This document shows, in pieces, positions 1 through 10,845 of a DNA stretch of 10,845 nt (the first letter of the stretch is position 1; every line of letters begins with the position of its first letter). The notes beneath the pieces are model-generated. The model worked only from the letters and a program-made list of their open reading frames with translations. It ran no database searches and was not told the DNA's origin. Source of the DNA: Candidatus Woesearchaeota archaeon (GTDB lineage Archaea > Nanobdellota > Nanobdellia > UBA10117); assembly GCA_023245115.1 (NCBI GenBank), contig JAHFKX010000004.1, forward strand, positions 1 through 10,845, given 5' to 3'. Made by a program: the position numbers and the translations under genes.

Positions 1-722
1 TCATATTTAAAAAAATTCTTGCGAATTTCGCCCAAGAATAATTTATGGAGCGTTGCAAGAACATATTTTATAAGATTTTTCAGCCGGCCTTCCATTTCTG
101 CCCGCCTGACAGAAACAAATACAGATCTGCGCATCACCCTGAATTTTCCAAATTTCGAGGCTCGGCCAACATAATCAAAATCTTCGGCAAGCGTAATAGT
201 CTCGTCAAATCCATTTATTTTTTTGTGCAGTGTTTTTTTACAAAAAATACACACGCCAACCGCTCCGGGATAAATATATTGTGAAACACCTATGACCGTG
301 TTAAAAAATATCTGCCATACTAAGCGATCCCAGGCGCGCTTCCTGCCGAACAGGCCGAACTCACCCTCGAGCGGCCGCATATAAACACTGGCGGCTTCGA
401 GTGCCCGCTGCTTGAATTCGCGGAGTGCGTACTCAAGAAAATAATTTTTTAAAATAACGTCTGCGTCAAGAAATAATAAAACGTCAGAGCTTGCCAGTTT
501 TGCCCCAAAATTTCGCGCATTGGCAACGCCTTTTCCAAGTTGACGTGTCATAATTAGTTTCATTTTATGCGAAAATGAATTAACAACAGCCATAGTTTCG
601 TCGTCAGAATGGGCGTCTACAACTATCACTTCAAAATTTTTATACGTCTGCTCAGAAAGTGATTGCAGAAGCTTGCCCACATATTTAGATTCGTTATATG
701 TTGGTATTATGATTGACAGCAT
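1..722 (-). CDS. Family 2 (GT-A fold) glycosyltransferase, C-terminus cut by the window edge
   Basis: My own translation of the minus strand from ATG at 722. The frame stays open to position 1, so it is absent from the ORF track (no stop inside the window). N-terminus is MLSIIIPTYNESKYVGKLLQSLSEQTYKNFEVIVVDAHSDDET... The IIPTYNE start and the DxD motif (LLFLDADVIL) are typical of GT2 enzymes. Confidence 0.8.
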   Translation of the reverse strand, partial: MLSIIIPTYNESKYVGKLLQSLSEQTYKNFEVIVVDAHSDDETMAVVNSFSHKMKLIMTRQLGKGVANARNFGAKLASSDVLLFLDADVILKNYFLEYALREFKQRALEAASVYMRPLEGEFGLFGRKRAWDRLVWQIFFNTVIGVSQYIYPGAVGVCIFCKKTLHKKINGFDETITLAEDFDYVGRASKFGKFRVMRRSVFVSVRRAEMEGRLKNLIKYVLATLHKLFLGEIRKNFFKY

Positions 723-742
723 GATGTTTTTATATAAATTAG

Positions 743-751
743 GTTAAAAAT
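743..751 (-). promoter_or_regulatory. Candidate TATA box (minus strand CATTTTTAAC) for the glycosyltransferase gene
   Basis: A/T-rich octamer 20-21 nt upstream of ATG 722, the same spacing as the other promoters in this window. Confidence 0.35.
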
Positions 752-777
752 GTTAATGGAACTCAAGCATACGGAAT

Positions 778-2349
778 TTACAGTGCCTTCGTAACGTACA
801 CACTCTCGTCTTCGTAGCTTAGCTTTCTGTAATACGCTTTCACACCAACGCCGGATAATATTTTTATGGATTTATATTTATTTTCCTTTGTAATTCTTTC
901 TGCCTCAGCAAGAAGTTTTTTTCCGTAGCCACGGTGTTGTGCGGCTAAAATATTATCGCCTGCCTCATTGCCAATCGCAACAGCTTCTCCGTAAACGTGT
1001 AGTTCCCTGACAAAAGCACCCTTTGCGCACAAACGCAGGCGCAAAAAGCCCAGCAGAATGTCCTGTTCTTTATCTTCGAAAGACAAAAATATTTCTTTCC
1101 CGCCACTTGCATCATAATCTTGCCTGCAAAGTGTGACAGCTTGCGGCAGTATGTGAAACTCATTCCACCTGTGGCCAACTTCTCGGCATCTGATACATCT
1201 GCATCTTATGTTGTTGCTCTTCAAATAATTTTGCACCATTTGGCGCAGATTTGTTGATTTGTAACCCGCTTCAACAAAGTTGCTAGGTATGTCACGCATT
1301 ATTCGTTTGATGCGAACGTACGGTGGAATGTGTTTTGTTTTTATGTCTGCCAGAACCTCAGCAATATATTCGTCATTTATGGGCTGGTATTCACCGTTAA
1401 TCCACTGCGTATAGAGTTCTGAGCCTTTGATAACGCCGCATGGATAAATTTTCAGGCCATCAGGTCTGAGATCTTCATCTTCAAAAATGATGCGAAACAT
1501 TTCTTTATCAAGTTCTTTGGAAGAGCCAGGCAGGCCAAGCATCATATGCAGGTCTACTTTAAATCCGGCGTCCTTCAACTCACGTATTGCGCGCTTCGCT
1601 TCTGATAAATTATGGCCACGCTTTATTTTTTCAAGAACGAATTCATAAATAGATTGCAGGCCAAGCTCGACGCGCGTAGCACCAAGCGTTAGCATGCGTT
1701 CAATGTGCTCTGTTTTACACCAGTCAGGCCGTGTTTCAATTATCAAGCTAATGACGCGGTTCTGCGCAGTTTCATTTAGTTTATGCGATTCAGCAATATT
1801 TTTTGTTGTGTGTTTCTTGCATGGTACATCCTTAGTGCAGCAGCCAAACTGGTTGAATGCATCAAAAATATTTTTTATGAAGTCGTATTGATAATCAAAA
1901 GGCAGCCACGTGAACGTCCCGCCTTGTACTATTACCTCATTTTTGTCAGTGTTATGCCCTACGTTGTGCAGCTGTGCCAGCCTATTCTGTACAATTTTAT
2001 ATTCGTCATAATTATTTCTGATTGCGCGCATTGTACTTGGTTCATGTCCGGTGTATGATTTAGGCGCATTCACAGCAGTCGGGCAGTAGGTACAGCGCCC
2101 AACGCAGCCGGCTGGCTTTGTCATGACAGCTATTGTGGAAACGCCGGAGATTGTTCTAGTCGGTTTTGTAATAAGCATTTGTTTTAATCGTGCCACGCGC
2201 CGGCCAGAGAAATTATTTAGGCCTTTTAGGATATCCGAGCTCAGTGGAATCTTCCCTTTGTTCTTTTCTGCCCAGCGTATTTTGGCTAGCTCTATTGAGC
2301 CCTTGTCCAGTTTTGGCAGGCCAAGCAGTACGTCAATTAGGTTTTGCAT
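778..2349 (-). CDS. elp3: Elp3-type radical SAM / GNAT acetyltransferase (tRNA wobble-uridine modification enzyme, Elongator subunit 3 homologue)
   Basis: 523 aa. Radical-SAM cysteine triad C-x4-C-x2-C (AGCVGRCTYCP). Elp3-typical CRCIRCRE cysteine motif. C-terminal GNAT motif A (QHRGYGKKLLAEAE). The length and domain order are characteristic of archaeal Elp3. Confidence 0.92.
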   Translation of the reverse strand: MQNLIDVLLGLPKLDKGSIELAKIRWAEKNKGKIPLSSDILKGLNNFSGRRVARLKQMLITKPTRTISGVSTIAVMTKPAGCVGRCTYCPTAVNAPKSYTGHEPSTMRAIRNNYDEYKIVQNRLAQLHNVGHNTDKNEVIVQGGTFTWLPFDYQYDFIKNIFDAFNQFGCCTKDVPCKKHTTKNIAESHKLNETAQNRVISLIIETRPDWCKTEHIERMLTLGATRVELGLQSIYEFVLEKIKRGHNLSEAKRAIRELKDAGFKVDLHMMLGLPGSSKELDKEMFRIIFEDEDLRPDGLKIYPCGVIKGSELYTQWINGEYQPINDEYIAEVLADIKTKHIPPYVRIKRIMRDIPSNFVEAGYKSTNLRQMVQNYLKSNNIRCRCIRCREVGHRWNEFHILPQAVTLCRQDYDASGGKEIFLSFEDKEQDILLGFLRLRLCAKGAFVRELHVYGEAVAIGNEAGDNILAAQHRGYGKKLLAEAERITKENKYKSIKILSGVGVKAYYRKLSYEDESVYVTKAL

Positions 2350-2370
2350 GAATTAATGCAATAGAAAATG

Positions 2371-2378
2371 TTTATAAA
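2371..2378. promoter_or_regulatory. Palindromic TATA box TTTATAAA shared by divergent elp3 and sppA
   Basis: It sits exactly in the middle of the 50-nt intergenic region, 21 nt from ATG 2349(-) and 21 nt from ATG 2400(+). Both flanks are A-rich and BRE-like (AGAAAATG on the left, TCTTTAAT on the right). Confidence 0.5.
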
Positions 2379-2399
2379 TCTTTAATTTGAGCAAATAGG

Positions 2400-3293
2400 A
2401 TGGCCACTAAGAACAAACCATCTGTTTTGCCAGCACTTCTTATCACGGCGCTTATTTTGATAGCGGTTATTTATGTTGGCGTTAAGCTTTCTCAGGAAGA
2501 AAAAGTTCTCGCGCCAACTATGGCAGTTATAACGCTGGACAGCAGCATTGATTCAAATGTTGCGAAGGACATGGTGAAACTGCTGAGAAAGGCAGACAAA
2601 GACAATGATGTAAAAGCAATAATTATCGAGATAAATTCACCCGGAGGAACAGTAGTAGCATCAAAAGAAATTGCAACTGCAGTTAAGCAGACCAGCAAGC
2701 CGACAGTTGCGTGGATTCGCGAAGTTGGCGCATCAGGTGCGTACTGGATAGCTTCAGCCTCAAATAAAATTGTTGCTGATGAAGCTTCTATAACTGGCTC
2801 AATTGGCGTTACCGGTTCTTATTTAGAATACTCAAAATTATTTGACAAATATGGAGTGACATACAACAGCCTGACGTCTGGCAAGTACAAGGACACTGGC
2901 TCGCCGTACAAGGAACTTTCTGACAGCGATAGGTCATATTTACTCAGCCTGATTAATGCGCTGAAAGTACAGTTCGTCCAGGCAGTTGCCGAAAACAGGC
3001 ATCTTACTTTCGATCAGGTAAATAATCTTGCAACTGGGCAAGTCATGCTCGGGGCTGACGCGCAGAAATTTAAGCTCATAGATACGCTCGGTGGCAAGAA
3101 AGAAGCCCAGCAGGTTGCAGAAAAGCTGGCTGGCCTCAAGAGCTCAAGGCTAGTGCAATATGAGCAGTCACAGAGCATTTTCGGTTCTTTAAGTTCTGAA
3201 GCACAGTCACTTGCCTACTGGGCAGGCCGCGGCATTGGAGATTCAGTAAAGCCGCAGGCAGATTCTGAATTAAAATTAGTCGCAGAGATTTAG
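2400..3293 (+). CDS. sppA: Signal peptide peptidase SppA, 36K type (peptidase family S49)
   Basis: 297 aa with an N-terminal TM helix (PSVLPALLITALILIAVIYVGV). S49 motifs present: IIIEINSPGG, GASGAYWIASA (nucleophile Ser context), TGSIGV and GKYKD (general-base Lys context). Confidence 0.88.
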   Translation: MATKNKPSVLPALLITALILIAVIYVGVKLSQEEKVLAPTMAVITLDSSIDSNVAKDMVKLLRKADKDNDVKAIIIEINSPGGTVVASKEIATAVKQTSKPTVAWIREVGASGAYWIASASNKIVADEASITGSIGVTGSYLEYSKLFDKYGVTYNSLTSGKYKDTGSPYKELSDSDRSYLLSLINALKVQFVQAVAENRHLTFDQVNNLATGQVMLGADAQKFKLIDTLGGKKEAQQVAEKLAGLKSSRLVQYEQSQSIFGSLSSEAQSLAYWAGRGIGDSVKPQADSELKLVAEI

Positions 3294-3317
3294 TCAGTTA
3301 GCTGATACTTATCGTGC

Positions 3318-3330
3318 AAAGGTTTTTAAA
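3318..3330 (+). promoter_or_regulatory. BRE/TATA-like promoter core AAAGGTTTTTAAA
   Basis: The 11-mer AAAGGTTTTTA is identical to those at 5222 and 9130. TATA octamer 3323-3330 lies 22 nt upstream of ATG 3353. Confidence 0.45.
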
Positions 3331-3352
3331 ATCGATAACTTTGTTGTTAATT

Positions 3353-3784
3353 ATGAATGCGTCTAAAGCAATATATGTGGTATGCGGCGATAATAATAAA
3401 ACCAGAGTGTTAGCCCGGCGCAAACAACATATCGAGGGCAGGCGTCCGCGAGTGGCAAAATATTACGTGTTAATTGATGCTGCCTGTTTAGTTGGCTGCC
3501 CGCACTTTAGCACAGTAGTAGATGATCGCATACGCTGCAGATACGGTGGATGGTATGATAAAAAGCAAATGTACGCTGCCTCAGAATTAGATTTTATACT
3601 TGTTGAACAAGTAACACCCGCGCAAAAAGAAGCGGCTGCGAGGATCCGCGTAAAAGGGTTAGACCTTCAGCAAAAATTGAGAGATGAAAATGGGGCGTCA
3701 CTTCTCAAAGAAGAAGGTGCTGCAGATGTTTTAAAACGCATGAGAGAAATTGAAGAAAAGAAAGGTTTTGTTAGGTCACAGTAA
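3353..3784 (+). CDS. Hypothetical protein (143 aa from ATG 3353; track start 3314 is a GTG inside the promoter)
   Basis: Long ORF. The start is chosen from the TATA-to-ATG spacing. Sequence begins MNASKAIYVVCGDNNK..., has a Cys/His cluster (CLVGCPH...C) and a charged helical C-terminus. I recognise no family. Confidence 0.6.
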   Translation: MNASKAIYVVCGDNNKTRVLARRKQHIEGRRPRVAKYYVLIDAACLVGCPHFSTVVDDRIRCRYGGWYDKKQMYAASELDFILVEQVTPAQKEAAARIRVKGLDLQQKLRDENGASLLKEEGAADVLKRMREIEEKKGFVRSQ

Positions 3785-3794
3785 ATTGTCAATG

Positions 3795-4349
3795 CTATTT
3801 AACATCCATAAAACTCGTCAGTGCAGGCCCCTGCGGCTGCGCCACCCTGCCAAGCTTTTCCATGGAGAGCTTCACGATTGGCATGCCGGGTTTTAGCACT
3901 ATTGGAATTTTGTTTGCGTTAAAAATTTCCAGCGTTATAAAACCAGAAAAATTTGGGTCGACAAACCCTCCGGAACAAAAAACCTGCAGGCCAAGCCGGC
4001 CAAGTGATGCGCGCGCATTTAGAATTCCCGTGTAATTGTTTGGCATCGTGATTTTTTCTTTTGTAACTCCAATTACAAACTCGCCCGGCGCGACCGCGTA
4101 AGAGCCGCCGTTCTGAACTTCAATCGTTGCGAATTTCTGCGCGGAGGTGAGCATTGTTTCCTCGTTTAACTTGAATTTTGGGTCAGCCGGATCGATAAAA
4201 GCAGAGCCAGCAGATACTAAAGTTGTAAATTTGTTTCCAAGCTTCAGCTCAACGTGCAGCTGCCGCATAGCCCCGCGATCGAACGGCTCGATTTTAAGAA
4301 CGCCACCTTTAATCAGTTCGAGAATCTCTTCGCCAAATAAGTATGCCAT
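3795..4349 (-). CDS. dcd: dCTP deaminase / dUTPase-fold enzyme (Dcd family)
   Basis: Family motifs present: GVLKIEPF, HVELKLGN, ARASLGRLGL and GFVDPNFSGFITLEIFN (catalytic Glu context). I prefer ATG 4349 (MAYLFGEEILE...) over the track's GTG 4361, because TATA TTTTTATC (4371-4378) lies 21 nt upstream of 4349. Confidence 0.85.
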   Translation of the reverse strand: MAYLFGEEILELIKGGVLKIEPFDRGAMRQLHVELKLGNKFTTLVSAGSAFIDPADPKFKLNEETMLTSAQKFATIEVQNGGSYAVAPGEFVIGVTKEKITMPNNYTGILNARASLGRLGLQVFCSGGFVDPNFSGFITLEIFNANKIPIVLKPGMPIVKLSMEKLGRVAQPQGPALTSFMDVK

Positions 4350-4370
4350 ACCTAATAGCACATAGAAAAA

Positions 4371-4378
4371 GATAAAAA
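4371..4378 (-). promoter_or_regulatory. TATA box TTTTTATC for dcd
   Basis: Located in the 35-nt gap between the RNase III stop and the dcd start, 21 nt from ATG 4349. Confidence 0.45.
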
Positions 4379-4384
4379 GCTATC

Positions 4385-5152
4385 TCATGGCCTGCTAGTG
4401 TTTGATTCAGCAGCGTTTTGTTCTAATTGTTTGAGTGCCTGTAAAATTGCGATTGTTCTTGCCGCGCTAACATATAAGCCAGAGCCTGTTGCCAGCAGCG
4501 TTTCATTCGCATAGATTCCAACTGTAGCTATCGCGCCTTTTTCTGCTGGAAGTAATTTATAATTTGGAAATTTTTTATACGTATCCCAAACCAATCGTAA
4601 CAATTTTGACTCGTTAGTATGATATGGGGCATGAATATTTTCAAGTGCCTGCCCAATATGTGATATGACATGTTTGATTACAAATTTTCTCGCGGTTTCT
4701 AAATCGCGGCCAGCGTCTAGGTATATTGCGTAGGTGACTGCTTCAAATACATCAGCAGGGAATGTTCTGCCATCTTTTTTGCTGCGATAACGTAAGACAT
4801 ATTCGCGCACGTCCAGAGAGCTGGCAATCTCTGAAAAAAATTTATTGCTTACTAAAGTATTTTGAATTTGATTAAACAGCACTACATCATCCATGGGCAT
4901 TAAGTTTACAAGTTCTTCAGTTACAATCAAACCAAGGAGCTTGTCGCCCAAAAGCTCTAACGTTTTGGCTTTAGGCATAAATTTGGCATCCACGCGCCAG
5001 TCCAGCGCCGCAAGAAGTAAATCTTTGTCTTTGAATGTGTAGCCGAGTTTTTCTTCGAGGTCTGATAGCTTTGGTGCGCTGTCCGTAGCACAGCGGCCGC
5101 AATTCCCACCAATCATTAAAGAACTATGTTCTGTGCAAAACTGCCCATCCAT
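4385..5152 (-). CDS. rnc: Ribonuclease III (bacterial-type, with a short Cys/His N-terminal extension and a degenerate dsRBD-like C-terminus)
   Basis: RNase III signature block LELLGDKLLGLIVTEEL (compare ERLEFLGD). Second catalytic block ADVFEAVTYAIYLDAG. All four acidic catalytic positions are present. The C-terminal ~90 aa have an alpha-beta-beta-beta-alpha pattern (NYKLLPAEKGAIATVGIYANETLLATGSG...AARTIAILQALKQL). Confidence 0.8.
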   Translation of the reverse strand: MDGQFCTEHSSLMIGGNCGRCATDSAPKLSDLEEKLGYTFKDKDLLLAALDWRVDAKFMPKAKTLELLGDKLLGLIVTEELVNLMPMDDVVLFNQIQNTLVSNKFFSEIASSLDVREYVLRYRSKKDGRTFPADVFEAVTYAIYLDAGRDLETARKFVIKHVISHIGQALENIHAPYHTNESKLLRLVWDTYKKFPNYKLLPAEKGAIATVGIYANETLLATGSGLYVSAARTIAILQALKQLEQNAAESNTSRP

Positions 5153-5221
5153 ACAAAATAAAAATACGATAAACTAATAAGCTTATTTGCGAGATATATT
5201 GCGCACATACGGCCGCAGCAG

Positions 5222-5234
5222 AAAGGTTTTTAAG
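5222..5234 (+). promoter_or_regulatory. BRE/TATA-like promoter core AAAGGTTTTTAAG
   Basis: Same 11-mer as at 3318 and 9130. TATA octamer 5227-5234 lies 21 nt upstream of ATG 5256. Confidence 0.4.
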
Positions 5235-5255
5235 ATTATGGGTAACGATAGCGTT

Positions 5256-6038
5256 ATGGTGCAAATAAAAACAGCGGAACAATTTTTAGAAGCACTGGAC
5301 CGCGTTGCTATTGGAAAAATGCAGGATGACGCCAGGCGCAATCACGCAAGCAATCAGCCACACGTTATGGATATAGCATACCTTGCCAAAGGTGCCGGCC
5401 TGAAGGTAGAAAAAGTAGGCCATCTAACTGCTTGGGCAATTGATTCGTCACGCGGTGCCATACAGATTCACGTAATAAAAGAACAATATCAAGGCGGAAA
5501 AGTCCCGGTTGCAATACAAAATATTCTTCTTACAGAGCTAGATGTTCGCGGCAGAAGTGCGCGTGAAGTAGCATACAGAAATTGTTTGCTCAATAATGTG
5601 CGGCTGGAAAATCCAAGCCAGCTTGAGCAATTGCTTGTCGATTCCAGTTTGGAAGTTCCAGAAATGTCAATTTGTGTTGAAGATGAGCCAGAACACTTCG
5701 GCGAATTTTTAGTACTAGATGCAGCCCACAGAATAGGAGAGCGGGTAGAAGAATATGGTGCCGCAAAATGCCTCGTCAAAAAAGAAAATTACGTAATCGG
5801 TGAGAAAGGGCGCAATTATTTCATAGTGCTGCGCACCAAAACTGCTGGCAACACACTCGCCGTGGTAGCAGATTTGAGCAAAAAAGTATTCCGCATAGAT
5901 TATGTGCACAAGAGCGGATTTGCCGGCATGAGTTTTGAGTTCGGTGAGCGACCAAAGGCCAGAGACGAAGCAGAAAAATTAGCGTCCAGTGCAATCGGAA
6001 TTCTGGAAACGTATTTAAGAAAAAATAATAAATTATAG
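5256..6038 (+). CDS. Hypothetical protein (260 aa from ATG 5256; alternative in-frame starts are ATG 5238 and TTG 5187)
   Basis: Long ORF with protein-like composition and no family I recognise. I prefer start 5256 (MVQIKTAEQF...) because the conserved promoter core overlaps 5222-5234. ATG 5238 would lie only 3 nt past the TATA box. Confidence 0.6.
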   Translation: MVQIKTAEQFLEALDRVAIGKMQDDARRNHASNQPHVMDIAYLAKGAGLKVEKVGHLTAWAIDSSRGAIQIHVIKEQYQGGKVPVAIQNILLTELDVRGRSAREVAYRNCLLNNVRLENPSQLEQLLVDSSLEVPEMSICVEDEPEHFGEFLVLDAAHRIGERVEEYGAAKCLVKKENYVIGEKGRNYFIVLRTKTAGNTLAVVADLSKKVFRIDYVHKSGFAGMSFEFGERPKARDEAEKLASSAIGILETYLRKNNKL

Positions 6039-6042
6039 ACGT

Positions 6043-6837
6043 TTATCCCTTCTTCCAGGCCATCTCGAACAACTCTTGCAGGGCTGAAGCAAAGTAAGGT
6101 GTGTTTACCCACATGCCCAAATCATAAGTTGGGTGAACGTCCTTGTCGTCCATCAGCATGAACAAGACCTGCTTGCCATCTATGATGCAAAATCTTGCGT
6201 TCATATCTTTGACGTCCTTTATTTCCGCAACACCCTGAAGTTTGTCTATGACTTCCTTCGTTTTGTCGTTGATAGGCGCGGCAATTTTTACCTTCACTCC
6301 CCTGGCCTTTGCCTTGTCCAGCAATGGCTTGAGTGCACGCACCTTTCTGATAAGGCCGTCTTCAGTTGTTACAATGGCAATTGACTTTTCTGCTTCTTTG
6401 ACAAGCATTGAGAGGTGGTCGTATAGGTTGTGCCTGCCTTTTAGCGCGCCCGAAAAGTCAGTAATCTGCATTGGCTCAATTCCCTGCTTGTAAAGCTGCT
6501 GCAACTCCTTCAGAATGTCCGAAGTGTGCAAGCCTTCGAGCCTCTTTGTTCTCTCTTCAGTGATTTCTGCAAGCCTCTTTGTGACGCGGTCCAAAACTTC
6601 AGTCGGGGCGATCGCCATGTACTTGATTGGCTTTTCGGGTTTAACAATAACAAATCCTTTCCTTTCCAGTGATTCTAAAACATCATACGTTCTTGAACGC
6701 GGTACGTCCGCTATATCCGACAACTCGCCAGCGGTAGAAACCCCGCGGGACAAAAGTGCAGTCCATAATTTTACTTCGTACAAATTTAGGCTAAACGCTC
6801 GCCTTAGCTTACTTAAAAATTCTTCATTCACGATCAT
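6043..6837 (-). CDS. TrmB-family transcriptional regulator (N-terminal winged HTH plus C-terminal TrmB-type effector domain)
   Basis: 264 aa. The N-terminus LYEVKLWTALLSRGVSTAGELSDIADVPRSRTYDVLESLERKGFV is the typical TrmB wHTH. It is followed by a coiled linker and a C-terminal domain of TrmB-like length. Confidence 0.88.
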   Translation of the reverse strand: MIVNEEFLSKLRRAFSLNLYEVKLWTALLSRGVSTAGELSDIADVPRSRTYDVLESLERKGFVIVKPEKPIKYMAIAPTEVLDRVTKRLAEITEERTKRLEGLHTSDILKELQQLYKQGIEPMQITDFSGALKGRHNLYDHLSMLVKEAEKSIAIVTTEDGLIRKVRALKPLLDKAKARGVKVKIAAPINDKTKEVIDKLQGVAEIKDVKDMNARFCIIDGKQVLFMLMDDKDVHPTYDLGMWVNTPYFASALQELFEMAWKKG

Positions 6838-6843
6838 TTTCTT

Positions 6844-6852
6844 ACCTCCACC
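6844..6852 (-). promoter_or_regulatory. Shine-Dalgarno site GGTGGAGGT for the TrmB-family gene
   Basis: The GGAGG core (plus 6845-6849) lies 7 nt upstream of ATG 6837. There is no TATA box at the 21-22 nt position used by the other genes. Confidence 0.6.
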
Positions 6853-6971
6853 TTACTCTCTGTTTGGAAATTCACAAAATTTACTTCTGCGAAGCCCCAA
6901 ATCTTTACTACCTTGGATGGTCGAACCATCAATGGCCTATTCATTTTACGAACACTACTACTTAATATATG

Positions 6972-6993
6972 TTACGGTTGTGTGTAACCATAA
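6972..6993 (-). other. Stem-loop, 8 bp with a 6-nt loop
   Basis: TTACGGTT gtgtgt AACCATAA. The single C6975-A6990 mismatch on the plus strand is a G-U wobble on the minus strand. Confidence 0.35.
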
Positions 6994-7139
6994 AGTTCCG
7001 ATTCCAGAATTGACTTTTAACAGTGTCAAAATTGAAATCGTAACTGGCGGATACACATTTTTCATTCAGGATTGTTTCTAAAACCGAAGTACTTAAATAA
7101 CTTGCTAAAATTTGTTACTGTGTAGTAATATATTTTGTA

Positions 7140-7447
7140 AAATAGAGATTGGAAACTCTATTTCGCGGAATATATCGCGATTTATGAAAAATGCGCTAAA
7201 ATCCCGCTCTTCAGAGCGCGGGATGTGACAAAATGTTTCATTTTGCCACCTCGCCGAACAAGTTCGGCGTTGAAGCGCATTTTCCATTCCAAAAACTTGC
7301 CATTTAAATGAGCATCGTAAAACCACGGGCTTCAACGAAAATGCGTAGCATTTTCGGGTGCTGGAAAATCCCATAGGATTTTTCACATAGCCCGTGGATA
7401 TGAAAAAATGTTTACATTTTTCCATCCGCAAACTCCTAGAGTTTGCG
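7140..7447 (-). ncRNA. Candidate structured non-coding RNA of unknown class (about 12 helices, one 4-way and one 3-way junction)
   Basis: Helices read directly from the sequence. H1 7140-7163 (8 bp). H2 7163-7180 (5 bp). 4-way junction with closing stem 7184-7196/7275-7287, enclosing hairpins 7201-7224, 7225-7249 and 7252-7269. H4 7298-7314. 3-way junction with closing stem 7323-7331/7389-7397, enclosing 7336-7356 and 7364-7384. H6 7400-7425 (11 bp). H7 7427-7447 (9 bp). About two thirds of the nucleotides are paired. A-C mismatches at 7187/7284, 7228/7246 and 7403/7422 are G-U wobbles only on the minus strand. Confidence 0.55.
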
Positions 7448-7470
7448 TTAGATGCGAGCAGCGAGTTTTT

Positions 7471-7478
7471 GTTATATC
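7471..7478 (-). promoter_or_regulatory. Weak TATA-like element (minus strand GATATAAC) that could drive the structured RNA independently
   Basis: Applying the window's 21-nt TATA-to-start spacing predicts a start at about 7449, 1-2 nt before the first helix (7447). The box is weaker than the others. Confidence 0.25.
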
Positions 7479-7495
7479 GTTTAAGTAAATAATTT

Positions 7496-8221
7496 TTAAT
7501 TCATAACCTGAGATTCTTGGTATAAATTAACTTCTGTGTCTCCATTCAGCCAAATAAACTTGCAATTCCCTTTGGCACGCCGCGCAATCTCGCTAAGCGA
7601 TTCTTTTGATGGGCTTTTGAAGACACAGCGTTGCGCGCCTTCCCCGCTGTACTTGCCGGCAGATTCAAAAACGAATGTGGAATCTTCTACGCCTTGAAAT
7701 GCATACCAACTAACAGTGCCTTTAATAGTTATATCGCAGTGCTGAATATATCTGAGACATTTTGGCGGCAAGTCTGCAACAATCGTCAGCTTCAGCGGCT
7801 TATTGCTGGTGCCAGCTATGCGTGTCTGTATGTTTAATGACCGCAGGTGTGTTAGGTTCAGCGTAAAATTATTATAATTTTTGTTGTAAGCCTGCTGGAC
7901 AAGCAAGGCTAAGAAGTTGCCTGTGCGTTCAAAGTTTTCATAGTCTTCATAAGTAACAACGCGGCTTACAAATTCATTAATTGTGTGGGGCGTAACTTTT
8001 ATTATTCCTAAGATAGTTGCGGCGTACCCTGGCGCTGCTGCATCAACATAACGTGGCGGGAATAGTTGTGATATGTTTTGGCGTAGGTATTTCTCGTAAA
8101 CACGAAACAACTTTTCCAGCCGGCTTTCTAGCTTTTCATCTATCTTGACCTTGAGCTGTTTCTCTTCATTCAGCGGCTCCAAATCGCTTAATATGCCCCG
8201 CAGGTTGTTGGATTTTTTCAT
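7496..8221 (-). CDS. Hypothetical protein, paralog B of a tandem pair (241 aa)
   Basis: Long ORF. Clear homology to the upstream gene: LSDLEPLNEEKQLKVKIDEKLESRLEKLFRVYEK vs LRDLEEPTPEKQLRVEVDEDLDDKLEKIFKLYKK; VTPHTINEFVSRV vs ITPHIIEEFVLRL; TGNFLALLVQQAYNKNYNNFTLNL vs TGVFISTLISISYKQGHNNFHIPL; GNCKFIWLNGD vs EGCKFYLIKDG. Its ATG overlaps the upstream stop (ATGA at 8218-8221). Confidence 0.75.
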   Translation of the reverse strand: MKKSNNLRGILSDLEPLNEEKQLKVKIDEKLESRLEKLFRVYEKYLRQNISQLFPPRYVDAAAPGYAATILGIIKVTPHTINEFVSRVVTYEDYENFERTGNFLALLVQQAYNKNYNNFTLNLTHLRSLNIQTRIAGTSNKPLKLTIVADLPPKCLRYIQHCDITIKGTVSWYAFQGVEDSTFVFESAGKYSGEGAQRCVFKSPSKESLSEIARRAKGNCKFIWLNGDTEVNLYQESQVMN

Positions 8222-8937
8222 GTTTCTGCAATTAATTCCTCTTTCCCGTCTTTTATTAGGTAGAATTTGCAGCCCTCGCCAGCACCCTTTGCGTAGGTAT
8301 CTAATACGTCCCTGCGCTCGCTTTTGAGTGTACAGTTAGTTGCATAGCCAGTAATTCTGCCGTCAAGGCCAGTCCAGTCAGTTGGCATGTCAGTCAGCTT
8401 CACAGTTAAATTCTTTGACCTATCTAAACAGCCATAGTCCGGCGAGCCGACTACAGAAATTTCAATGGGCTTGCCTGTTTCTCCATCCAGACGGCCGCAA
8501 AGATACATTATAGATTCCAAACGCTCGCTGGCAATCAAAGGGATGTGAAAATTGTTGTGGCCTTGTTTGTATGATATGCTAATCAAAGTGGAAATAAATA
8601 CCCCTGTGTTTTCGGAAAAATTATGAGCAGTTTTTGATTTGTAATATTTTTCAAGCCTTAAAACAAATTCTTCAATTATGTGTGGAGTTATAGTAACTTG
8701 TTTTGCCAGCGTTTTCAGCCCTTTTTCTAATCCGCGTGCCAGCACCCATGAATCAAATTTATATTCATATTCCGGGAATCTAGCAGCATATGTTTGTTCC
8801 AATGCGAGTTTTTTGTATAATTTAAAAATCTTTTCAAGCTTGTCATCTAAATCTTCATCTACCTCGACCCTGAGCTGTTTTTCCGGCGTTGGTTCTTCTA
8901 AATCTCTAAGTAATTGCCGAGCTGCATCCCGTTTCAT
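8218..8937 (-). CDS. Hypothetical protein, paralog A of a tandem pair (239 aa)
   Basis: Long ORF with a TATA box 21 nt upstream of its ATG. Charged helical N-terminus and a Cys-containing, beta-rich C-terminal half. Paralogous to 7496-8221. I recognise no family. Confidence 0.75.
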   Translation of the reverse strand: MKRDAARQLLRDLEEPTPEKQLRVEVDEDLDDKLEKIFKLYKKLALEQTYAARFPEYEYKFDSWVLARGLEKGLKTLAKQVTITPHIIEEFVLRLEKYYKSKTAHNFSENTGVFISTLISISYKQGHNNFHIPLIASERLESIMYLCGRLDGETGKPIEISVVGSPDYGCLDRSKNLTVKLTDMPTDWTGLDGRITGYATNCTLKSERRDVLDTYAKGAGEGCKFYLIKDGKEELIAET

Positions 8938-8958
8938 ACCTATTTACGCAAGCAAACA

Positions 8959-8966
8959 CTTATAAA
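8959..8966 (-). promoter_or_regulatory. TATA box TTTATAAG for the paralog operon
   Basis: 21 nt upstream of ATG 8937, consistent with a leaderless transcript. Confidence 0.5.
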
Positions 8967-8985
8967 CTGAACGTATAGTTAGTCC

Positions 8986-8992
8986 AAAAAAA
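8986..8992 (-). terminator. Oligo-T tract (T7 on the minus strand), archaeal-type terminator candidate
   Basis: A7 on the plus strand equals T7 on the minus strand. It lies downstream of the orphan gene fragment's stop (9055) and upstream of the paralog-operon promoter. Confidence 0.3.
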
Positions 8993-9035
8993 TCGGCGGT
9001 TTCATGGCTAATCAGCAGAAAAACTGCATTTGCAC

Positions 9036-9059
9036 TTTTTCATAAAATTTTTCATTAAA
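9036..9059. repeat. Tandem 12-nt direct repeat TTTTTCATAAAA / TTTTTCATTAAA
   Basis: 11 of 12 positions are identical between the adjacent copies, and the region is AT-rich. Confidence 0.5.
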
Positions 9060-9135
9060 TCATTTTTAGCAGGGCCGCATCTTCAGAGCATTGGTTTGTG
9101 CGGGTATGCGGTTGGCTGGCTTGCTGCGGAAAGGT
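9055..9135 (-). pseudogene. Orphan 3'-terminal fragment of a paralog of the 133-aa secreted-protein gene (9658-10059)
   Basis: The minus-strand frame reads ...KTFPQQASQPHTRTNQCSEDAALLKMI*. The intact gene ends ...PTFTVEQIRPSRCLPRTNQCSEDAVGISVR*. Both share RTNQCSEDA followed by exactly 6 codons and a stop. The nucleotide core is 21/24 identical. Confidence 0.45.
9081..9104. repeat. Direct repeat core, copy 1 (CTTCAGAGCATTGGTTTGTGCGGG)
   Basis: 21/24 identical to 9684-9707. Weaker similarity extends across 9055-9135 vs 9658-9747, with a 9-nt length difference. Confidence 0.7.
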
Positions 9136-9142
9136 TTTTATA
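9130..9142 (+). promoter_or_regulatory. BRE/TATA-like promoter core AAAGGTTTTTATA
   Basis: Same 11-mer as at 3318 and 5222. TATA octamer 9135-9142 lies 22 nt upstream of ATG 9165. Confidence 0.45.
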
Positions 9143-9164
9143 GCCATAAGGTGCACATAATCAC

Positions 9165-9671
9165 ATGAATAATAATAAATTTTCGTTCAAAGATGGGCTG
9201 GTACATAGGCTTAGGTCGCAGTTTGGGTATGGACTATCACAAACTCCGCAAGGATATTTGTTGGCAACAAGACGCAATATTGGGCCGTTTGGTGGGCTGT
9301 CTGTTTTTTGTATCGGCAACGCGGATGGCCAGACAGAAACACTGCAGTCCATCACTAATTTTATAAATAGCACGTATGATCTTGGCGAAGAAGAACTTAG
9401 ACGCGTAGCAAAGATGTCGCCGGTTAGGTCGCGTGTTTATTTTTCTGTATTAGTATCAGAATCACATTTTCCAGAAGATTTAATAAGTATTTTAAAAGAT
9501 ACTCATGAGAATCGTAATATATTTGCATACGAAATTCCTGTTTTAGTCGAGGCGCAGCCCTTCAAAATAACTAAAATATTTCCATGGCAGTTTTCTGGTA
9601 TGGGGCTTTTTCCAGTATTCTGGTTGCACTTAAGAAGCGTATTAAAAGACACGCCAATTAGCGCACGCTAA
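9165..9671 (+). CDS. Hypothetical protein (168 aa)
   Basis: ORF with the conserved promoter at leaderless spacing and no family I recognise. Its 3' end overlaps the convergent 133-aa gene by 14 nt. Confidence 0.6.
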   Translation: MNNNKFSFKDGLVHRLRSQFGYGLSQTPQGYLLATRRNIGPFGGLSVFCIGNADGQTETLQSITNFINSTYDLGEEELRRVAKMSPVRSRVYFSVLVSESHFPEDLISILKDTHENRNIFAYEIPVLVEAQPFKITKIFPWQFSGMGLFPVFWLHLRSVLKDTPISAR

Positions 9672-10059
9672 TTCCAACTGCGTCTTCAGAACACTGGTTT
9701 GTACGGGGAAGGCAGCGAGATGGCCGGATTTGTTCAACCGTAAAGGTTGGCCCCTTACCACCATTAAAAATCCACGCAGAGCCAAGGGTGAATGCAGCTG
9801 GCCTGAATTTTGCCCCGTTGAGTTCGAACTGCAGAGTTGTAGTTACGCGCATTAAACCCTGTTTACTCATATTTACATTTATACTAACGAGATAAATTTT
9901 ATATGTGTCGCCTTTAACAATTTTATTGTCTACATATGTGAACGGCGCATTCTTTGTTACTACGCCTTTGTTTTGCAGTCCTATAAGTTGTGCATGAGCA
10001 ACAGGCACACTGAACAGCAGAATTGCTAATAGCAATATAATCATATGCTGCGATTTCAT
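9658..10059 (-). CDS. Small secreted hypothetical protein (133 aa) with an N-terminal signal peptide
   Basis: MKSQHMIILLLAILLFSVPVAHA|QLIG has the n/h/c regions and an AxA-type cleavage site. The mature part is beta-rich. TATA lies 21 nt upstream of the ATG. Confidence 0.7.
   Translation of the reverse strand: MKSQHMIILLLAILLFSVPVAHAQLIGLQNKGVVTKNAPFTYVDNKIVKGDTYKIYLVSINVNMSKQGLMRVTTTLQFELNGAKFRPAAFTLGSAWIFNGGKGPTFTVEQIRPSRCLPRTNQCSEDAVGISVR
9684..9707. repeat. Direct repeat core, copy 2 (CTTCAGAACACTGGTTTGTACGGG)
   Basis: Lies inside the 3' end of CDS 9658-10059 and matches 9081-9104. Confidence 0.7.
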
Positions 10060-10063
10060 TTAG

Positions 10064-10078
10064 TTGCTAACGTAGCAA
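10064..10078. promoter_or_regulatory. Inverted repeat TTGCTA-acg-TAGCAA between the TATA box and the start of the 133-aa gene (operator candidate)
   Basis: Perfect 6-3-6 palindrome. It lies in the 21 nt between TATA 10081-10088 and ATG 10059, the usual position of archaeal repressor sites. Confidence 0.3.
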
Positions 10079-10080
10079 GG

Positions 10081-10088
10081 TTTATAAG
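10081..10088. promoter_or_regulatory. Shared TATA box TTTATAAG for the divergent secreted-protein genes
   Basis: 21 nt from ATG 10059(-) and 24 nt from ATG 10113(+). The context AAGGTTTATAAGCTTT is nearly palindromic. Confidence 0.45.
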
Positions 10089-10112
10089 CTTTACTACTGC
10101 ATAATAGCTAAA

Positions 10113-10845
10113 ATGATAAACAGTATTTCGGCCCCAAAAAATTTATTTAAAAAAATAGCAGTTGTAATAACGTTGTGCTTATTTTTGTTAAGCTATGTGC
10201 CTGTTCCAGCGCATGCTGCGCTCAAGCTGACGTTCGACGTTGATAAACCTAATAGCGTTTATATTTCGGGTAAAGATAAAGTAACGTTTACAATAAATAA
10301 CACCGGACAGGATATAATATACGTTGACTGTAACGGGATATTAGTCGGACAACTGCAGGCCAATGGCCAGACAGATTTCATAACACAGGAAATGCATTCC
10401 TGCTATGTGCTAGCAGGTGCTAATGTGCCAATATCTTATGAAGTAGATCCAGGTCAAACACATACATGGCAATGGGACCAGAAAGATGATGTGTTTCAAA
10501 AGCAGGCTCCGAACGGAAAAAATTATTATGGGGAAATTGTAGTATACACTAGTTTAGTAACAGGTGCTTCTAATACATATACTACTTCTTATTTTAGTAT
10601 AGATTCTAATGGCGACGGTGATGGAGTTCCAGATAGTCAAGATATGTGCCCGCAGACTGCAGGCACTGGAAGCTGGGGAAGTGCTGTTGGTTGTCCGGAC
10701 TATGATAATGATGGTATACCAGACAAAAAGGACGATGGAAGCCAAAACGGGTTTAACGGTACTGATGCATGCCCAGGAGATCCATCACAAAGCCAAGAAT
10801 GGAATGGCGCACAGAAAGAAGATTATGAGGGCTGGAAAGACACCG
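10113..10845 (+). CDS. Secreted protein with thrombospondin type-3-like calcium-binding repeats, C-terminus beyond the window
   Basis: My own translation; not in the track because there is no stop inside the window. Signal peptide MINSISAPKNLFKKIAVVITLCLFLLSYVPVPAHA|ALKL. It is followed by a beta-rich domain and then Asp-rich repeats DSNGDGDGVPDSQDMCP and CPDYDNDGIPDKKDDG (DxDxDGxxDxxD pattern). Confidence 0.75.
   Translation, partial: MINSISAPKNLFKKIAVVITLCLFLLSYVPVPAHAALKLTFDVDKPNSVYISGKDKVTFTINNTGQDIIYVDCNGILVGQLQANGQTDFITQEMHSCYVLAGANVPISYEVDPGQTHTWQWDQKDDVFQKQAPNGKNYYGEIVVYTSLVTGASNTYTTSYFSIDSNGDGDGVPDSQDMCPQTAGTGSWGSAVGCPDYDNDGIPDKKDDGSQNGFNGTDACPGDPSQSQEWNGAQKEDYEGWKDT

Follow-up and report, generated by a model that had tools for sequence, protein, structure and literature searches.

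What do two overlapping, unannotated genes encode, and does the strongly folding region directly downstream belong with them? The question is raised by a 10,845-nt stretch from a Candidatus Woesearchaeota archaeon (contig JAHFKX010000004.1, positions 1–10,845 of the forward strand; hereafter the window). Its minus strand carries open reading frame (ORF) A (8218–8937; 239 amino acids (aa), ATG start), ORF B (7496–8221; 241 aa, ATG start) and, 21 nt beyond the end of ORF B, the start of a structured element (7182–7474; 293 nt, TAAC...CATAA). A sequence-only reading of this locus had proposed that A and B are translationally coupled paralogs of an unrecognised family and, as a plausible but unproven reading, act together with a dedicated RNA. 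We find that A and B belong to a real, unannotated and previously undescribed protein family of DPANN archaea, that its genes form variable tandem arrays, that its C-terminal half is remotely homologous to the beta-helix of FwdC, and that the pair and the element have no link.

Two coupled paralogs of an undescribed family

A and B align by BLASTP with 76 of 251 positions identical (30%; 49% positives; E=6e-26), which places their paralogy far beyond chance and bears out the sequence-only reading. The four blocks it had picked out as conserved are all present in this alignment (EKQL.V..DE.L...LEK.F..Y.K, TPH.I.EFV.R, TG.F...L....Y....NNF and CKF) and are also family-wide motifs. The proposed coupling was likewise confirmed at the sequence level: the stop codon of ORF A overlaps the start codon of ORF B in an ATGA at 8218–8221 (minus strand), and tight packing recurs in homologous arrays, where called genes of L003 and L001 are separated by a 4-nt gap or share a 4-nt overlap. 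A TATA-like box, TTTATAAG (8959–8966, minus strand), read from the sequence 22 nt upstream of the ORF A ATG at 8937, is a candidate promoter whose position fits a leaderless archaeal A–B transcript. A scan of the window for sigma-70 promoters and terminators is uninformative for archaea.

An exhaustive HMMER search of 1.84 billion cluster representatives, with a profile of the two paralogs as query, returned 487 of them at E≤1e-3, of which 109 also pass E≤1e-10. A word-indexed homolog search returned the query alone with A or B and seven proteins with the profile. Named matches are all from DPANN archaea, as hypothetical proteins of Woesearchaeota, 'DPANN group' and Nanobdellati metagenome-assembled genomes (MAGs); two further MAGs carry an automatic and unverified 'Methanosarcinales' label. 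The family profile recovers B at 231.8 bits and A at 211.5 bits by hmmsearch, both over their full length and with the N-terminal motifs and the GHNNF block aligned. Family-wide motifs are L.DLE.P.PEKQLKV, TP..I.EF, TG.F.S.LIQ.SY..GHNNF.L and C.FKS...CK.YLLKDG.E, and the nearly invariant positions are G112, N128, F130 and G152, none of which points to a catalytic centre.

Taken singly, A and B match nothing in Pfam, NCBIfam, PADLOC or the PDB sequences, so the earlier statement that no motif can be recognised holds for the two proteins on their own. Among the PADLOC defence models, 2 of 60 family members have marginal, unrelated matches. No member contains a transmembrane-like segment (maximum 19-residue Kyte-Doolittle mean, 1.36) or a signal peptide. 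Isoelectric points (pI) are mixed across the family (A, 5.9; B, 9.0; median, 6.2). A viral origin was considered and dropped, since viral contigs contain neither the protein motif nor the RNA core. No description of the family or of the structured element was found in the literature.

A remote beta-helix behind a new N-terminal domain

A profile of 60 family sequences matches FwdC/FmdC chains (E=1.2e-10) across the repeated FwdC turns, as does a profile of 14 sequences comprising A, B and their closest full-length relatives (E=8.4e-8). Among individual members, 18 of the 60 match TIGR03122 (E≤0.01, best 4.8e-9) and 4 match PF01493. Neither model is matched by A or B even at E≤10, and a profile of A and B alone matches no FwdC chain in the PDB; the homology of A and B to FwdC/GXGXG is accordingly demonstrable through intermediate sequences. 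The beta-helix is shortened in both proteins, most in A, and has lost most turn glycines; B keeps one more turn. The family was thus rightly called unrecognised insofar as no curated library covers the whole of it, but its C-terminal half is a remote, degenerate FwdC/GXGXG beta-helix.

The AlphaFold2 (AF2) model built from the 60-sequence alignment is confident (predicted local distance difference test (pLDDT) 87, predicted template modelling score (pTM) 0.83) and consists of about 125 helical residues, followed by beta strands, one helix and a beta-hairpin cap. With an alignment of the two paralogs alone the model is poor (pLDDT 62). A structural search had been suggested along with the original reading; Foldseek with the good monomer model found no match in PDB or BFVD at E≤1e-3, and hence no neighbour of the whole model. 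The predicted architecture is a new helical N-domain (approximately residues 1–125), a beta-helix of variable length and a small alpha/beta cap; the beta-helix is right-handed and remotely homologous to FwdC and to the glutamate-synthase GXGXG domain.

With the approximately 19-residue turns of FwdC (PF01493, TIGR03122) the family shares its C-terminal half, which aligns to them and whose beta-helix is probably non-catalytic. The family departs from FwdC/FmdC and glutamate synthase in several ways: its helical N-domain of about 125 residues is unique to it, and it has a C-terminal alpha/beta cap; A and B retain few of the turn glycines and by themselves fall below every curated threshold; and the genes lack Fwd or Glt context, occurring instead in tandem arrays of many divergent copies. 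The beta-helix type is known, the N-domain is new, and the array-forming hyper-expansion is unusual.

Family genes form divergent tandem arrays

We located further family genes by scanning GTDB genomes with a hand-made degenerate motif, which yielded ten loci from five MAGs. All ten are co-directional, tightly packed arrays of three to at least 11 members (L001–L013). Together with the window, the five MAGs contribute 60 counted members; several arrays occur per MAG, recovered family genes number at least 14 to 25 per sampled MAG, and one MAG holds at least 25 members from three loci. Most members find their best match in the same locus or genome, and the median identity within arrays is 32%, a combination that indicates lineage-specific duplication with fast divergence. 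Conserved 'A-type' and 'B-type' orthogroups are absent. Rather than in fixed A/B pairs, the family comes in variable arrays, of which the pair in the window is the smallest.

Members differ in length, with more beta-helix turns in the longer ones, and some are fused. An annotated 742-aa protein, P0003 (MBI4453658.1), contains three complete units, and a 666-aa ORF at L009:2479–4476 contains two. Such natural fusions suggest contact between neighbouring units and, because they exist, make co-expression and physical association of neighbouring paralogs plausible.

Genes for a MoxR-like AAA+ protein (AAA_5/AAA_lid_2) and a VWA protein (L001:272–3567; L006:1956–3353 and 5990–7951) flank three-gene arrays. 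The MoxR and VWA proteins of the two loci are 31% and 27% identical, respectively, and the gene orders differ. This arrangement fits a chaperone-plus-client operon of the kind known for MoxR/VWA systems with a dedicated client (CbbQ/O-Rubisco, NorQ/D and RavA-ViaA); unlike in those systems, the genes adjoin the family at 2 of the 10 array loci only, are absent from the 10.8-kb window, and the client relation is read from gene order alone. Other arrays are flanked by NadA, a transposase (L008) and unknown genes. Neither the pair nor the arrays have Fwd, Fmd, GltB or another candidate catalytic partner beside them, and no toxin, nuclease or protease domain was found in or beside the arrays examined.

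Directly downstream of the five-gene array of L011 lie two adjacent paralogs of about 500 aa (4670–6175 and 6162–7643; 34% identity), one of which has a weak winged-helix match. A variant of the 5' module of the structured element follows these two genes.

A dispersed structured element downstream of ORF B

The region 7090–7500 folds far more stably than shuffled sequences (z=-10.4 for the minus strand and -10.1 for the plus strand). A relative of the element first came to light in L007, where nhmmer weakly matched its core immediately behind a fragment of a family gene; the closing helix shows compensatory changes there. When metagenome contigs were scanned with the core common to both copies, GCCCRTGGYTTTACGNNNCTCNNTTA, 12 loci emerged (L014–L025), whereas about one was expected by estimate; two contigs contributed two loci apiece, and part of the set is duplicated between two samples. 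Trained with the window left out, a covariance model still recovers the window copy (7182–7359, 29.4 bits, E=1.9e-4) as well as further copies in L016, L023 and L028. Outside the window at least 14 copies are known in 12 loci, several per contig, among them L007:5205–5342, L016:2388–2479, L023:927–1047 and L028:14073–14204.

All copies share one architecture: TAAC is followed by domain 1, which comprises P1-P2-P3 and has conserved internal loops; a GGAA linker then leads to domain 2, a three-way junction, and TAA closes the element. The core measures about 135 nt, and optional hairpin modules are inserted at fixed points. In the window a nested mini-module of two hairpins mimicking a stripped-down copy (7399–7450, minus strand; 20.9 bits, E=0.0012) holds a T6 run at 7403–7408, and a module resembling it occurs at L011:7642–7723. 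In an alignment of eight cores, 91.8% of cells pair, compared with 43–48% when partners are slid by one column, and 14 pairs have changed on both sides. Rfam has nothing in 7100–7500 at E≤1, its best match to a compact copy (E=1.1) is far below the gathering score, and the array loci contain no match at gathering score.

The copy of the element in L028 abuts a tRNA gene, whereas the orthologous gap of the related locus L026 is empty with TAA at the junction; filled and empty states at this site, the one examined, indicate insertion polymorphism. In seven of 12 copies a co-oriented ORF ends ≤65 nt upstream, and in three of these seven cases the element begins at the TAA stop of that ORF. No transposase partner was identified.

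Several observations accompany these copies. Two independent short assemblies, an ENA contig (3525 nt) and the Logan contig L029 (922 nt), cover ORF B and end about 50 and 160 nt past its stop codon, assembly ends at or inside the element being what a repeat is expected to produce. The tRNA-like gene, recognised by eye and with an apparent intron, lies between glycosyltransferase and TFE genes (L028:13850–14070; L026:13830–13940). L028 has a second partial copy of the end of this gene, with AAAAATATAGCCCCGCTC present twice, and the doubling suggests an old integration scar.

Known RNAs (RNase P, SRP, riboswitches, H/ACA and self-cleaving ribozymes) were rejected for want of Rfam support, and a single-copy housekeeping RNA is ruled out by multicopy occurrence in varied contexts. 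Copies facing convergent genes argue against a 5' leader, and a 108-aa ORF inside the element (7105–7431) was dismissed as a chance ORF. The element is probably a dispersed structured element resembling miniature transposable elements with inverted repeats (MITEs) or repetitive extragenic palindromic (REP) sequences. Like the Correia/NEMIS MITEs of Neisseria and enterobacterial REP/BIME repeats, it is multicopy, intergenic, often placed just after a co-oriented gene and strongly folding; it shares with them insertion polymorphism, TAA at both ends, partial dyad symmetry, nested modules and assembly breaks. It differs from them in its two-domain architecture, conserved internal loops and 14 covarying pairs, which bring it nearer to a functional RNA than to a simple inverted repeat, as well as in lacking an identified transposase partner and an Rfam entry. 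Its conserved loops may leave room for a real RNA role, and as an alternative to a MITE- or REP-like repeat it could be an undescribed multicopy non-coding RNA (ncRNA) of DPANN archaea.

The pair and the element occur independently

The sequence-only reading had tentatively joined A and B with the downstream RNA, on one transcript, into a dedicated ribonucleoprotein (RNP) or RNA-regulated module. Some details of the locus do lean that way. The element follows ORF B closely and in the same orientation, and no run of five or more T intervenes: the longest minus-strand run from the ORF B stop (7496) to 7447 is three, as had been correctly noted. In L007 the copy lies within an array and begins precisely where a fragmentary family gene has its stop codon, the variant module of L011 lies 3 kb downstream of an array, and B is basic. 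With a structured RNA beginning immediately past the end of a co-oriented protein gene, the locus also recalls TnpB/IscB and their omega RNA.

The distribution of the two components, unlike that of TnpB/IscB and omega RNA, fails to support such a partnership in either direction. At none of the 12 metagenome element loci does the sequence around the element, up to 14 kb of it, contain a family gene; the genes that lie there are unrelated and, as read from first residues, mostly of housekeeping type (TFB-like, aminoacyl-tRNA-synthetase-like and small ribosomal proteins). On a count of 12 element loci outside the window that includes L007 and L028, ten are free of family genes, and the remaining two are the array L007 and a locus whose MAG has arrays on other contigs. 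Among the array loci (74 kb, searched with filters off) only L007 of ten contains the element, so that homologous genes without a similar RNA nearby are found at the other nine; the sequence-only reading had itself named such homologs as evidence that would refute it. The MAG of L028 has arrays on three other contigs (L001, L011 and L013), yet its element copy adjoins a tRNA gene, and at the site of the pair both L026 and L028 lack pair and element alike. The proteins, too, speak against RNA binding: pI values are mixed across the family, no RNA-binding domain is present, and, in contrast to TnpB/IscB, A and B are devoid of domains for nuclease activity or nucleic-acid binding. In addition, the T6 run (7408–7403) and the T5 runs further in, all within the folded region, would probably halt archaeal read-through early. 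Since the folded stretch is just one of many copies of an element dispersed over genomes, the RNP reading is unsupported, and we regard it as close to refuted. Read-through of the element as a 3' untranslated region (UTR) is plausible for any upstream gene and is nonspecific to A and B.

A variable genomic island

The window also encodes Elp3 (77% identical to its closest proteins, which come from DPANN MAGs), an SppA-type peptidase, a dCTP deaminase, a bacterial-type RNase III and a TrmB-family regulator. In the syntenic relatives L026 and L028 the TrmB proteins are 94% and 93% identical to that of the window, and no family gene lies between the conserved neighbours. Their nucleotide sequences become similar to the window again at about 7170, just past the structured element; because both relatives lack the pair and similarity returns only after the element, the pair resides in a variable island.

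The alignment with L026 and L028 sets the end of the window-specific segment at a non-coding region upstream of the TrmB-family gene (6935–7175, minus strand). The structured RNA of the sequence-only reading consequently divides in two: its 7182–7474 part is the dispersed element, whereas its 7100–7175 part belongs to the TrmB-upstream stretch. This stretch of about 240 nt is kept in the relatives without the pair (L026:4487–4722, L028:4457–4690) at about 77% column identity in a wider alignment. RNAalifold predicts a long structure with a slightly unfavourable covariation term (+0.57) from three sequences only, and six pairs stay paired with both sides changed. The stretch might serve as a 5' UTR or constitute an ncRNA of its own.

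Two further genes of the window deserve mention. An ORF at 10113–10845 (plus strand), which exits at the window end, has a clear N-terminal signal peptide and places a secreted or surface protein beside the variable island. The RNase III domain protein (4385–5152, minus strand) is of bacterial type in a DPANN archaeon. Correia elements are processed by RNase III, and by analogy this enzyme could process hairpin-rich repeats such as the element.

Proposed role and alternatives

On balance we favour the view that A and B constitute a minimal two-gene array encoding a soluble, hetero-oligomeric, non-enzymatic scaffold beside an independent element. We are confident of the descriptive part of this statement (that A and B are paralogs and members of the family, that the family forms arrays and has a homologous beta-helix, and that a link to the RNA is lacking) and put forward the scaffold or oligomer function of A and B tentatively. 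The two ORFs would be transcribed from one promoter, the box at 8959–8966, with coupled translation, and their products would associate with each other into hetero-oligomers. We infer that they would serve as interaction scaffolds without enzymatic activity, as the FwdC-type beta-helix does in Fwd and glutamate synthase, and that in some genomes the MoxR AAA+/VWA pair would act as a chaperone assisting assembly. The family evolves by lineage-specific duplication and rapid divergence, and the two genes lie in a variable island; the element is an independent, chance neighbour of ORF B and at most a 3' UTR or termination module. Bactofilins and the MinC C-domain are small soluble beta-helix proteins that oligomerise through exposed ends or faces and whose paralogs are often adjacent. 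The family may resemble them in these respects, but neither sequence comparison nor Foldseek matched A or B to bactofilins or the MinC C-domain, and the family differs from both in its FwdC-type helix, its extra N-domain and its far higher copy numbers.

The main rival takes the proteins for a diversifying conflict or host-interaction family, that is, effectors, decoys or immunity-like proteins directed at viruses, mobile elements or the episymbiont host, in which the beta-helix would form a variable recognition surface and the N-domain a constant adaptor. Lineage-specific expansion with fast divergence is what such a family would display, as are high copy numbers despite small genome size (the MAG with three loci has at least 25), the differences in beta-helix length between members and the location of the pair in an island missing from close relatives; a transposase lies near one array, and MoxR/VWA pairs, which also occur in known conflict systems, offer a lead. 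Set against this are the lack of any meaningful PADLOC match, the lack of toxin, nuclease or protease domains in or beside the arrays examined, the absence of a signal peptide or transmembrane segment that would allow surface exposure, and the absence of the motif from viral contigs, and we consider a conflict role rather unlikely. That A and B are accessory beta-helix subunits bracing an enzyme complex is very unlikely. The FwdC/GXGXG domain is structural in formylmethanofuran dehydrogenase and glutamate synthase, and the homology of the C-terminal half would suit the same duty here; but no candidate catalytic partner adjoins either the pair or the arrays, a stoichiometric subunit would hardly be expected in dozens of divergent copies per genome, and DPANN archaea are not known to carry out methanogenesis.

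Implications

This analysis defines the family by a profile, motifs, a confident monomer model, a remote FwdC-type beta-helix, natural fusions and a MoxR/VWA link, and removes a misleading RNP hypothesis for A, B and the RNA. As a by-product, it delineates in DPANN genomes a dispersed structured element with covariation support and insertion polymorphism, for which Rfam has no entry.

DPANN genomes measure about 1 Mb, and most of their lineage-specific genes are uncharacterised. The many array genes carried by a small MAG make the family a strong candidate for serving a specific need, such as structure, host interface or defence, and the operon-like arrays differ even between close relatives. 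A bolder proposal, which we consider unlikely, is that the family is a signature invention of DPANN archaea, in which dozens of diversifying beta-helix paralogs per reduced genome, expressed from coupled arrays and in some cases assembled by MoxR/VWA machines, would polymerise with one another into a structure inside the cell or at cell contacts, or else would amount to a diversifying conflict system of a new kind. If true, such a heteropolymer or conflict system would be central to the episymbiotic lifestyle.

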